A stretch of 53,216 nt of DNA from Candidatus Woesearchaeota archaeon (GTDB lineage Archaea; Nanobdellota; Nanobdellia; Pacearchaeales; GW2011-AR1): positions 1-53,216 of the forward strand of contig CAZTCF010000004.1 of the NCBI GenBank assembly GCA_964612685.1. Reading direction: 5' to 3'. Each line of letters starts with the position of its first letter. Position 1 is the stretch's first letter. The notes under the pieces were generated by a model. The model ran no database searches and was not told where the DNA came from. It saw nothing but the letters and a program-made list of their open reading frames with translations. Of the stretch, positions 961 through 41,679 are shown piece by piece. A program made the translations under genes and the position numbers.

Positions 961-3651
961 TTGATGAATGTTAAAGTGATAAAAGAAGAATCAAAAAAAG
1001 TTTTAAATTTTCTAAAACAAAAGAAAATACAGACAATAATAACTGTAATTCTTTTAATAGCAATAATTTTCTTTACTGCTCAAATAAGAACAAATAATAT
1101 ATCCCTACTAAAAGATGCAACAACTGGAGAATACTTAACAGCAGATTTGGATGCATTTTACTGGTTAAGGCTTGCAGAAGTTCTTAATGAAAATGGAGCA
1201 TATCCAGAGTATGATGACATGAGATACCCTCTGCTTAAACTTCCATTCACACATGAAATCCTGCCTAATGTATTGGTATTTTTATATAAGATAATATCTC
1301 CTTTTTCGGAAAATATAACCCTTGCGTATGTTGATGTGATTTATCCAGTAATATTTTTTATTTTAAGTATGATTGTGTTTTTCTTTTTGGTATTGAGACT
1401 TACAAAATCAAAATTGGCTGCATTATTATCTAGTTTCTTCTTAGCAATAATACCCTCCTATTTATTTAGAACAATGGCAGGGGTTTCGGATCATGAACCA
1501 ATAGGGATGTTTGCTTTCTTCCTGGCACTTTTATCATTTACTATATCTGTGCAACAAATTGAAAAAAAGAATTCATGGAAATTGGCTACAATATTTGGAA
1601 TAATTACAGGATTTTTAACCGTGTTTAATATGGCTGCTTGGGGAGGGTCTGCTATATTTGTATTATTGATAGTTCCCCTAACAATATTCTTACTCTGGAT
1701 AACTAATGTAAATAAAACAGAAGAGGGGAAGAATAATCTAAAAGAGTATTTGACGTTCTATATCTCTTGGGTAATGTCTTTCATTCTATTAGGGGTGGTA
1801 TTTTCTTATCCAATCACAACTTCATTGAGTTTCATAATGAATATAAGGGGAATAATTATACCTCTTGTACTAATATTCCTAATAGTAGATTATTTGGTTA
1901 TGCATTTAAAAGATAAAAGGATAAAAGAAATTGGAAAATACAGAATAATCTTAAGTCTAGGTATATCAATAATTCTAGGGATATTAATAAGTTTAATATT
2001 TAATCAGGCTATAGGATTATCTATATCTAATATAATCTCTAATATACTTCGTCCATTCGGGGGGGGAAGAGTAGGGGAGACTGTAGCAGAAAACGCACTT
2101 CCATATACAACTGATTTGATGGGACAAATTGGAAAATCCATGTTCTGGATATTCTTTGGAGGAATCCTTATCATGGGTATTGATTTCGCTAGAGGAATTG
2201 GAAAAAAGAAAAACAAAGTATTATTTTCATTTTTGTGGGCATTAATGATATGTGGAGTATTACTGCATAGATATTCTACTGGATCTATGTTTAATGGAGT
2301 GTCTTTCATAAGTAAATTCTTTTACATAGGAAGCATTATTGTTTTCTTTGGAGCTTTTATATGGATATATTTTAAAGACAAAATAATTGTAAAGGGCGAT
2401 CAGGTGATTTTACTTCTTTTCACTTTTTTCATGGCAATGGCAGGAGTAAGTGCGATTAGATTATTGTTCATATTTACTCCAATAGTTTGTATTGTTTCGG
2501 GGTATGCAATTGTAAAAGTTTATCAGTATGCAAGAGAGAGTAAAGATGAGATATTTAAATTAATATTTTATGCTGCTTTAGTTGGAGTTATTGGGCTTCT
2601 AATATTTGCTTCAGTGAATTACATAAACGCTATTAAAATTCAATCCACCCAGATTGGTTCTTCTGCAAATGCCCAATGGCAATATTCTATGGAATGGGTA
2701 AGAGAAAACACTCAACCAGGAGAGGTGTTTGTTCACTGGTGGGATTATGGATATTGGGTTCAATATATGGGTGAAAGACCAACAGTAACAGATGGGGGGC
2801 ATGGAAATCTTTACTGGGATCATTTAATAGGGAGATATTTATTAACCACCCCTTATCCAGAAACTGCATTGAGTTTTATGAAAGCTCAAAATGTTTCATA
2901 TTTATTGATAGATCCTACGGATATAGGAAAGTATTCTGCTTATAGTAGCATAGGAGGGGATGAAGAAGGGAACGATAGATTTTCATTTATACCTGCAATG
3001 GTATCTAACCCTAGCCAAATACAAGAAACAAAAAATGGAACAATAAGAATATACAATGGAGGATATGGATTGGATGAAGATATAATATACAAACAAGAGA
3101 ATGGAGAAACGATCTTTATCCCAACACAAAATTCCGGAATCGGAGGGATAATTCTTGAAAAGGAAAAAGATGGATTTAAACAACCAATAGCAGCATATAT
3201 CTATAATGGAAATCAAATAAATCTTCCGGTAAGATACTTGTATTATAATGGAACTTGGTATGATTTCAAAAATGGAACAAATACAGCCGTGTACATAATT
3301 CCTCAAATAAGCCAGGTGAATACAGGACTTCAGCTAGATGAAGAGGGGGCTTTAATATATATGTCTTCAAGAGTTGTAGATAGTTTAGTTGCCCAGCTTT
3401 ATCTGATGAACGATCCACAAGGAAAGTACGAAGGAGTAGAACTAGTACATTCTGAGCCAGACCCAATAGAAACTTATCTTGAAAGATATGCAAATATGGA
3501 TATTAATGAATTCTTTTACTTTAATGGACTTAGAGGACCGCTTAAGATATGGGAAGTTAACCCCCCTGAGAATATAATTGCTAGAGAAGAATTCACTGCA
3601 ATTTCTGGAGATTATGCAAGTTTGGATGATTTGGAATTTATAAAATTATAA
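961..3651 (+). CDS. aglB: Oligosaccharyltransferase AglB (STT3 family)
   Basis: WWDYG motif, DLDAFY, TVAEN, DIGK (DK motif); many N-terminal TM helices and a soluble C-terminal domain. Start is TTG 961 or ATG 964. Confidence 0.97.
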   Translation: MMNVKVIKEESKKVLNFLKQKKIQTIITVILLIAIIFFTAQIRTNNISLLKDATTGEYLTADLDAFYWLRLAEVLNENGAYPEYDDMRYPLLKLPFTHEILPNVLVFLYKIISPFSENITLAYVDVIYPVIFFILSMIVFFFLVLRLTKSKLAALLSSFFLAIIPSYLFRTMAGVSDHEPIGMFAFFLALLSFTISVQQIEKKNSWKLATIFGIITGFLTVFNMAAWGGSAIFVLLIVPLTIFLLWITNVNKTEEGKNNLKEYLTFYISWVMSFILLGVVFSYPITTSLSFIMNIRGIIIPLVLIFLIVDYLVMHLKDKRIKEIGKYRIILSLGISIILGILISLIFNQAIGLSISNIISNILRPFGGGRVGETVAENALPYTTDLMGQIGKSMFWIFFGGILIMGIDFARGIGKKKNKVLFSFLWALMICGVLLHRYSTGSMFNGVSFISKFFYIGSIIVFFGAFIWIYFKDKIIVKGDQVILLLFTFFMAMAGVSAIRLLFIFTPIVCIVSGYAIVKVYQYARESKDEIFKLIFYAALVGVIGLLIFASVNYINAIKIQSTQIGSSANAQWQYSMEWVRENTQPGEVFVHWWDYGYWVQYMGERPTVTDGGHGNLYWDHLIGRYLLTTPYPETALSFMKAQNVSYLLIDPTDIGKYSAYSSIGGDEEGNDRFSFIPAMVSNPSQIQETKNGTIRIYNGGYGLDEDIIYKQENGETIFIPTQNSGIGGIILEKEKDGFKQPIAAYIYNGNQINLPVRYLYYNGTWYDFKNGTNTAVYIIPQISQVNTGLQLDEEGALIYMSSRVVDSLVAQLYLMNDPQGKYEGVELVHSEPDPIETYLERYANMDINEFFYFNGLRGPLKIWEVNPPENIIAREEFTAISGDYASLDDLEFIKL

Positions 3652-25087: not shown

Positions 25088-25104
25088 ATATTCTCCGTAT
25101 TCAA

Positions 25105-25175
25105 TGCGCGAGCCGGGATTCGAACCCGGGTCATCTGGTTGGAGGCCAGAGATTCTGCCGCTGAACTACCCACGC
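25105..25175 (-). tRNA. tRNA-Gly(UCC), with atypical C33
   Basis: Cloverleaf read on minus strand: GCGTGGG/CTCGCGC acceptor, TCTGG-CCTCCAA-CCAGA anticodon arm, TTCGAAT T-loop. No encoded CCA. Confidence 0.9.
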
Positions 25176-25268
25176 ATAAAATAAATACTAAATTGGTGGT
25201 TTTAAAGGTTTTTGATACTTGAAAAAACGTAGAAACAGATTTATTAACTAAAAAATATAATTCAACAA

Positions 25269-25754: not shown

Positions 25755-25763
25755 TAAAAATTA

Positions 25764-25838
25764 TGCGCTCGGAAGGATTTGAACCTTCGACTCCCTCCTT
25801 AGGACGGAGGTACTCTATCCAGGCTGAGTTACGAACGC
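25764..25838 (-). tRNA. tRNA-Arg(CCU), with atypical G32
   Basis: GCGTTCG/CGAGCGC acceptor, CCTCC-GTCCTAA-GGAGG anticodon arm, A20 in D-loop. Confidence 0.9.
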
Positions 25839-25840
25839 AA

Positions 25841-25924
25841 TGCGGATGAAAGGGTTCGAACCTTTGCAAGCACTGAGCTACGAGAGCCTTAATCTCGCCC
25901 GTTTGACCACTCCGGCACATCCGC
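25841..25924 (-). tRNA. tRNA-Leu(AAG)
   Basis: GCGGATG/CATCCGC acceptor, CGAGA-TTAAGGC-TCTCG anticodon arm, long variable arm. Aligns gap-free with tRNA-Leu(CAA) at 41596. Confidence 0.88.
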
Positions 25925-25960
25925 GAAATCTTTCTAAAAAATCAAGAAATCGAGCATATA

Positions 25961-25975
25961 AAAAGGTTTATAAAT
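25961..25975 (+). promoter_or_regulatory. BRE/TATA promoter of 5S rRNA, overlapping a divergent TATA for the tRNA pair
   Basis: AAAAGGTTTATAAAT about 22 nt before the 5S start; TTTTTATAT on the minus strand toward tRNA-Leu. Confidence 0.6.
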
Positions 25976-25996
25976 CCAAAAGATGAGATAATTTTG

Positions 25997-26106
25997 AGAC
26001 GGCCATAATAGGTTGGTAACACCTGTTCCCTTTCCGAACACAGAAGTTAAGCAATCTATGTTGTTATCGGTACTGTCCGGAAAGATGGGAAAATAGCAAG
26101 CTGTCT
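25997..26106 (+). rRNA. rrf: 5S rRNA (stand-alone)
   Basis: Terminal helix AGACGGC/GCTGTCT, conserved CCCTTTCCGAACACAGAAGTTAAG, downstream T-tract. Confidence 0.9.
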
Positions 26107-26142
26107 TAACTTTTTTTTAAAATTTAATAATTACTTAAAAAA

Positions 26143-41595: not shown

Positions 41596-41679
41596 GTGGG
41601 TGTGCCGGAGCGGTCAAACGGGACAGACTCAAAATCTGTTAGCTTAGTGCTTACCTAGGTTCGAATCCTAGCACCCACA
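41596..41679 (+). tRNA. tRNA-Leu(CAA)
   Basis: GTGGGTG/CACCCAC acceptor, ACAGA-CTCAAAA-TCTGT arm, long variable arm. Confidence 0.95.

Follow-up and report, generated by a model that had tools for sequence, protein, structure and literature searches.

The window, that is, the whole 53,216-nt stretch of DNA analysed here, carries on its minus strand an 84-nt gene for a class II tRNA, which is intronless and does not encode the CCA end. ARAGORN assigned the gene as tRNA-Leu with the anticodon AAG, and Rfam matched it over its full length, with a score of 53.4 bits end to end for RF00005 against 25841-25924 (E = 9.6e-9, model positions 1-71; gathering score 29). The letters of the gene are GCGGAUGUGCCGGAGUGGUCAAACGGGCGAGAUUAAGGCUCUCGUAGCUCAGUGCUUGCAAAGGUUCGAACCCUUUCAUCCGCA. 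The anticodon stem is composed of CGAGA and UCUCG, with all five base pairs formed, and encloses a seven-base loop (U32-U33-A34-A35-G36-G37-C38), in which G37 follows the anticodon on its 3' side. A long variable arm and the discriminator A73 provide the identity features of a leucine tRNA. Both programs bear out the sequence-only reading, which had called a tRNA-Leu with an encoded A34 in an archaeon, and the further details it gave (a gap-free alignment with tRNA-Leu(CAA), the loop TT-AAG-GC, a perfect 5-bp stem and G37) were all re-read as claimed. The features referred to below are as follows.

25841-25924, minus strand: tRNA-Leu(AAG) gene (ARAGORN; Rfam full-length match)
25888-25890, minus strand: anticodon A34-A35-G36, with A34 at 25890 (T on the plus strand)
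25764-25838, minus strand: tRNA-Arg(CCU) gene (ARAGORN, Rfam), 2 nt downstream of tRNA-Leu(AAG)
25756-25760, minus strand: T5 run TAATTTTTATTAAT (minus-strand letters), just downstream of tRNA-Arg
25955-25964, minus strand: TATA-like box TTTTTATATG (minus-strand letters), putative promoter element, preceding the 5' end of mature tRNA-Leu by about 35 nt
25967-25974, plus strand: TATA-like box TTTATAAA, putative promoter element, preceding the divergent 5S rRNA gene by about 25 nt
25995-26109, plus strand: 5S rRNA gene (RF00001, 72.5 bits), divergent from the tRNA pair
25104-25176: tRNA-Gly(UCC) gene (ARAGORN/Rfam)
41596-41679, plus strand: tRNA-Leu(CAA) gene (ARAGORN, Rfam), the second Leu isoacceptor in the window

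Alignment of tRNA-Leu(AAG) against the tRNA-Leu(CAA) of the window requires no internal gaps, and the two genes have the design of the D-arm and the variable arm in common. This common design marks the AAG gene as native. A bacterial or viral origin was ruled out, since the same D-arm and variable-arm design is found in tRNA-Leu(CAA) of the window and in the archaeal GAG, CAG and UAG genes of related metagenome-assembled genomes (MAGs).

The gene lies in a compact and conserved neighbourhood. The 70-nt spacer between tRNA-Leu and the 5S rRNA gene (25925-25994) contains the two TATA-like boxes back to back, an arrangement kept in relatives whose SecF proteins are 97% and 79% identical to that of the window. 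Because the two tRNA genes lie on the same strand, behind a TATA-like box and ahead of a T5 run, tRNA-Leu(AAG) and tRNA-Arg(CCU) are probably co-transcribed, and the T5 run is likely the archaeal terminator of the Leu-Arg transcript. Its transcription would start at a TATA-box promoter that adjoins the oppositely directed promoter of the 5S rRNA gene. The same Leu(AAG)-Arg(CCU) pair is kept in the loci L006-L012 and is found again in at least 19 metagenome loci. The tRNA-Arg(CCU) gene is the only one seen in the window that matches AGG, a codon used 96 times there. The 16S and 23S rRNA genes are not linked to this 5S rRNA gene.

The host has a GC content of about 31%. The window encodes archaeal-type SecD/SecF, a homologue of AglB/STT3, the ribosomal proteins L21e, S4, S11 and S13, and RpoN, RpoD and an Rpb4-like protein; the nearest named homologues of SecF are from Nanoarchaeota/Nanobdellota. 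Judged by its genes, the host is a DPANN archaeon of the Woese-, Pace- or Nanoarchaeota type. Its leucine codons are dominated by TTA (642) and CTT (386), followed by TTG (235), CTA (146), CTC (75) and CTG (47), and CUU makes up 59% of the CUN codons in the window.

To our reading, the identity of the wobble base is secured by other assemblies of the same population. Contigs of this population were found by an identical SecF or GH3 protein, which yielded five separate assemblies with at least 99.98% identical DNA. Four of them have A34, namely JGI 3300010355 (contig Ga0116242_10000148, 154.6 kb), JGI 3300025855, JGI 3300025871 and ENA ERZ795056. Only ENA ERZ761564, at 4x coverage, has T34 and thus the anticodon UAG (L003 position 4197, corresponding to 25890 of the window), which is its sole difference from the window across 6137 nt. 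The base support and the chance of an assembly error, both raised by the sequence-only reading, are answered at the level of assemblies by this comparison: A is found in four independent assemblies, T in one of low coverage and G in none. A34 is reproducible and is not an assembly error. The T34 of ERZ761564 could have arisen by gene conversion from a UAG twin, or from a mixing of paralogues when reads were corrected or assembled at low k. Either origin requires a UAG twin of identical body in the host genome, and such twins are present in relatives.

The AAG anticodon extends well beyond this population. The syntenic gene is AAG in relatives with SecF identities of 97% (Logan SRR8925812; NCBI GCA_964412025.1), 79% and 77%, where the acceptor, anticodon, T and variable stems are altered in a compensatory manner and the AAG is unchanged. 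We scanned the GTDB species genomes for the exact Leu D-arm followed by NAG-G37, and the matches listed comprise 120 stretches, in which the 122 CUN-reading tRNA-Leu genes divide into 70 UAG, 27 AAG, 16 GAG and 9 CAG. A scan of JGI metagenome contigs with the exact anticodon arm of the clade, leaving position 34 free, gave 119 contigs among the matches listed, with A in 100, T in 19 and neither G nor C in any. At least 86 distinct AAG sequences were collected overall. The lineage-wide occurrence that the sequence-only reading had proposed to check is therefore borne out by the orthologues at 97%, 79% and 77% SecF identity and by 27 of 122 GTDB and 100 of 119 metagenome matches listed. Its assumption that such tRNAs are isolated exceptions does not hold, given the AAG in syntenic orthologues and in many genomes of the Woese- and Pacearchaeota type.

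RNAalifold analysis of 27 AAG sequences revealed changes on both sides in 15 of 24 base pairs, with A34, A35, G36 and G37 invariant. The compensatory changes in the helices, together with the invariant A34-A35-G36-G37, are the signature of a tRNA family that functions and is held by purifying selection. The AAG-bearing MAGs of GTDB are labelled Woesearchaeota, Pacearchaeota, Nanoarchaeota, Nanoarchaeia or archaeon, and in one case (L017, DAIQOR010000005.1) 'bacterium', a title borne by a contig that has a DPANN-type tRNA-Leu(AAG). Similarly, about 20 contigs titled 'uncultured Methanosarcinales archaeon' share their Leu D-arm with the DPANN MAGs, and both kinds of title look at odds with the content.

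Comparison of the AAG genes with other CUN-reading genes points to the UAG isoacceptor as their closest relative. Among 23 GTDB AAG genes compared, the nearest gene is TAG in 18, GAG in three (L045, L051 and L065) and tied in two, a comparison biased by the roughly fourfold smaller number of GAG loci in the sample; three of the 23 have a TAG gene at just 0-1 mismatch. In the MAG CAZPVF01, the AAG gene (L129 5043-5128) and the UAG gene (L079 4658-4746) are identical except at nucleotide 34 and have unrelated flanks. Further AAG/UAG twin pairs at unlinked loci are L064 and L036, L124 and L044, and several in the metagenome loci L133-L251, with unrelated flanks. Moreover, a UAG gene and an AAG gene lie together on one 10-kb contig (L077), one MAG has two UAG genes (L123 and L130), and in L215 the gene linked to Arg(CCU), which is AAG in its relatives, is UAG. 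These twins suggest either duplication with a switch of the anticodon or concerted evolution, and the pattern fits an interconversion of the A and U versions by one base change in duplicated or gene-converted copies. The human tRNA-Leu-AAG and tRNA-Leu-UAG, which we take to be similar twins as well, offer a parallel; the human AAG anticodon arm, presumably CUGGAUUAAGGCUCCAG, is also the arm of several of these archaeal genes.

The sequence-only reading had derived the gene from tRNA-Leu(GAG) by a change of G34 to A34. This origin is not supported, since the nearest genes are UAG and differ only at position 34, and since position 34 within the anticodon arm of the clade is A or T, with no G among the 119 contigs listed. 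A direct G-to-A change in the deep past is conceivable but finds no support in the sequences compared. The AAG gene may still hold the functional slot of GAG, as no sampled assembly among the matches listed has both. The source assemblies of the 27 AAG and the 16 GAG loci of GTDB among the matches listed do not overlap, which is a weak indication of mutual exclusion in a sample restricted to one exact D-arm or anticodon-arm sequence.

The distribution of the two anticodons follows base composition. The median GC content is 32.3% for AAG-bearing and 40.3% for GAG-bearing GTDB loci (Mann-Whitney P = 4e-5, ignoring shared ancestry), and GAG and CAG genes with the same Leu D-arm are found in higher-GC relatives. 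Among CUN codons, CUU accounts for 58% in AAG loci against 42% in GAG loci and CUC for 13% against 27%, again ignoring shared ancestry. The link to AT-rich, CUU-rich coding drawn in the sequence-only reading is upheld by these GC contents and by the 386 CTT against 75 CTC codons of the window. The encoded A34 fits a combination of AT mutation pressure and selection for a Watson-Crick reader of CUU.

Surveys of archaeal tRNAs rest on genome sets of the GtRNAdb type, in which DPANN archaea are hardly sampled. In surveys of 167-220 archaeal genomes, ANN tRNAs were essentially absent (PMC6000648; bioRxiv 10.64898/2026.05.15.725136; PMC8007984; PMC11066159). A 2026 survey counted three ANN cases among 10,517 archaeal tRNAs (bioRxiv 10.64898/2026.05.15.725136), one genome out of 167 had Leu-AAG in a study of 2018 (PMC6000648), and a review states that all ANN options are missing in archaea, where no A34 deaminase is known (PMC8007984). 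The description of archaea as devoid of ANN tRNAs and of TadA/ADAT, given in the sequence-only reading, agrees with this literature (PMC8007984; PMC6000648; bioRxiv 10.64898/2026.05.15.725136). The conserved and diverse tRNA-Leu(AAG) family in uncultured DPANN archaea, members of a domain with no known A34 deaminase, contradicts the archaeal ANN absence drawn from these surveys. We found no published report of a DPANN tRNA-Leu(AAG) family in the literature on DPANN tRNAs, anticodons and wobble, on TadA and inosine, or on the archaeal AAG anticodon.

The only archaeal Leu-AAG on record is tRNA-Leu(AAG) of Ferroplasma acidarmanus fer1, which is reported to be species-specific and to derive from GAG by a G-to-A change, in a genome without a GAG isoacceptor (PMC6000648). 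It resembles the present gene as an archaeal tRNA-Leu with an encoded A34, and the host genome studied here is likewise predicted to lack GAG. However, the DPANN AAG genes are spread across many species, and the sequences nearest to them are UAG. Compared to the canonical archaeal CUN set of GAG and UAG, with or without CAG, the D-arm, the variable arm, A73 and G37 are alike, whereas position 34 is G there and A here, and C34 genes are absent from AAG-bearing loci among the matches listed.

Altogether, we somewhat favour the view that this is a functional, native tRNA-Leu with an encoded A34, belonging to a conserved DPANN family in which A34 and U34 tRNAs together decode CUN and A34 is mostly unmodified. 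In AT-rich DPANN archaea of the Woese-, Pace- and Nanoarchaeota type, the AAG family would take the pyrimidine-reading CUN slot that is held by tRNA-Leu(GAG) in other archaea, and would work beside a U34 partner, tRNA-Leu(UAG), which is often a near-identical paralogue. LeuRS would charge tRNA-Leu(AAG) normally, because the anticodon is no part of leucine identity, which resides in A73 and the long variable arm. In decoding, A34 would form a Watson-Crick pair with CUU, the rare CUC would be read by relaxed pairing of A34 or by the U34 partner, and CUA and CUG would be left to the U34 partner. A34 and U34 tRNAs in one genome are observed in the relatives L077 and CAZPVF01, and the window covers 53 kb of the host genome. 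For the host itself, we infer that the gene is expressed, that GAG is absent, that a UAG partner is present and that A34 is mostly unmodified, the last by analogy with tRNA-Thr(AGU) of Mycoplasma capricolum.

Such a scheme has precedents in bacteria. The unmodified A34 of M. capricolum tRNA-Thr(AGU) reads all four ACN codons, ACA poorly, with a U34 partner present, and Lactococcus lactis uses the same A34 plus U34 scheme for CUN (PMC3711424). Moreover, ANN tRNAs engineered for four-fold boxes in E. coli are unmodified, translationally active, and neutral or beneficial (bioRxiv 10.64898/2026.05.15.725136). The Thr(AGU)/Thr(UGU) pair of M. capricolum and the CUN pair of L. lactis resemble the DPANN case in an AT-rich reduced genome, a box shared by A34 and U34, close paralogues and a dominant NNU codon; the U34 partner of the DPANN AAG gene is seen in the relatives L077 and CAZPVF01. 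They differ in that both are bacterial, whereas the AAG family is archaeal and clade-wide, and in that A34 of M. capricolum was found unmodified by RNA sequencing, whereas the DPANN A34 is known here from genes and its unmodified state is deduced. In this sense, tRNA-Leu(AAG) in an A34 plus U34 scheme would be of a known kind, and its systematic use in an archaeal clade appears new. If A34 is unmodified, the family would be nature's largest case of a wobble adenosine that works unmodified in translation, and would bear directly on the puzzle of why ANN tRNAs are so rare in four-fold boxes despite being tolerated.

The strongest alternative, which we regard as possible but on the unlikely side, is that A34 is converted to inosine by an unrecognised archaeal enzyme, either a laterally acquired TadA/ADAT2-like protein of the CDA fold or an unrelated deaminase of the type that makes m1I57. 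Archaeal m1I57 is made by an unidentified deaminase. A mature IAG anticodon would read CUU, CUC and, weakly, CUA, with tRNA-Leu(UAG) reading CUA and CUG; I34 would thereby read CUC, with its 75 occurrences in the window, cleanly. In most organisms an encoded A34 becomes I34, and Leuconostocaceae and Streptococcus have extended TadA to tRNA-Leu(AAG) (PMC11066159; bioRxiv 10.64898/2026.05.15.725136; PMC8266599). A laterally acquired TadA is not far-fetched, because DPANN archaea have imported bacterial genes for queuosine, a modification of position 34 (PMC8204110). The tRNAs of the bacterial TadA and the eukaryotic ADAT2/3 systems, including tRNA-Leu(IAG), are also similar to the present one in their encoded A34, their four-fold box, G37 and a UAG isoacceptor of similar body. 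The strict conservation of A34 over at least 86 sequences agrees with deamination and fits an unmodified A equally.

Nevertheless, the TadA and ADAT systems have a deaminase, whereas archaea have none on record and the 1.6 Mb sampled here yielded none. No archaeal A34 deaminase has been identified (PMC8007984), and in E. coli the ANN tRNAs of four-fold boxes were not modified by TadA (bioRxiv 10.64898/2026.05.15.725136). We searched the window and 255 related loci, 1.6 Mb in total, by phmmer with E. coli TadA (an approximate query sequence) and by two motif regexes, and found no TadA-like ORF and no CDA-fold motif (H/C-A-E ... PCxxC). This result argues weakly against deamination, as 1.6 Mb corresponds to about 1.6 genome-equivalents around tRNA-Leu genes, for which zero hits would be about 20% likely even with one such gene per genome. 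Similarly, tRNA-Arg(ACG), the ancestral substrate of TadA, is absent from the approximately 320 tRNAs in the loci around tRNA-Leu, a set in which the CGN decoders are unsampled. Mentions of 'TadA' in the DPANN literature proved to be the first name of an author and a pilus ATPase, not the deaminase. The wider proposition, that a large DPANN clade deaminates A34 of tRNA-Leu(AAG), and perhaps of the tRNA-Thr(AGU) of L113, by an unrecognised enzyme, is rather doubtful in our judgement. If A34 is deaminated, however, a hidden archaeal wobble-inosine system would exist and all three domains would have wobble inosine, made in this clade by a Leu-specific TadA gained through lateral transfer or by an enzyme of a new fold.

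It is improbable that A34 carries another modification, such as 2'-O-methylation or a base methylation, which would tune its pairing without deamination. Archaea modify position 34 in several ways, in favour of this idea, but we know of no precedent for such a modification of A34 in decoding.

Compared to these alternatives, which concern the state of A34, two others question the gene itself, and both are rejected. The gene is very unlikely to be a silent or decaying copy, with CUN read wholly by other tRNAs: its helices are kept paired through compensatory changes over wide divergence, its anticodon loop is invariant, and it follows a conserved TATA box, with tRNA-Arg(CCU) 2 nt downstream. 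Least credible of all is a sequencing or assembly artefact, or a mutation that a single strain acquired very recently in a UAG or GAG gene and that may be harmful, as the T that is the only change in 6.1 kb of the 4x assembly ERZ761564, and that may itself stem from a UAG twin by conversion or assembly cross-talk, is set against A in four independent assemblies, AAG in orthologues at 97-77% SecF identity and at least 86 distinct AAG sequences whose stems have changed in a compensatory way.

Several further features were observed in relatives. In related MAGs, an insertion just after position 37/38 of the anticodon loop occurs in many of the Leu(UAG) genes and in some of those for Leu(AAG) (GTDB loci L015, L025, L041, L049, L075, L088, L099, L101, L106, L114 and L115), and is presumably an archaeal tRNA intron; such genes escaped ARAGORN when its intron option was off. 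In L010, from a relative whose SecF is 77% identical, a LAGLIDADG-type ORF (PF14528, 2413-3240) immediately precedes tRNA-Leu(AAG) (3189-3272), the start of which it overlaps, and this ORF is absent from the otherwise similar L011. In addition, a second kind of A34 tRNA is found in one DPANN MAG, a tRNA-Thr(AGU) in Candidatus Nanoarchaeia archaeon SO_2017_LW3_149 (L113, GTDB JBAZFK010000013.1, 5049-5120, minus strand; Rfam 71 bits), which has the loop C-U-A-G-U-A-A and adjoins tRNA-Leu(CAG) and tRNA-Leu(UAG).
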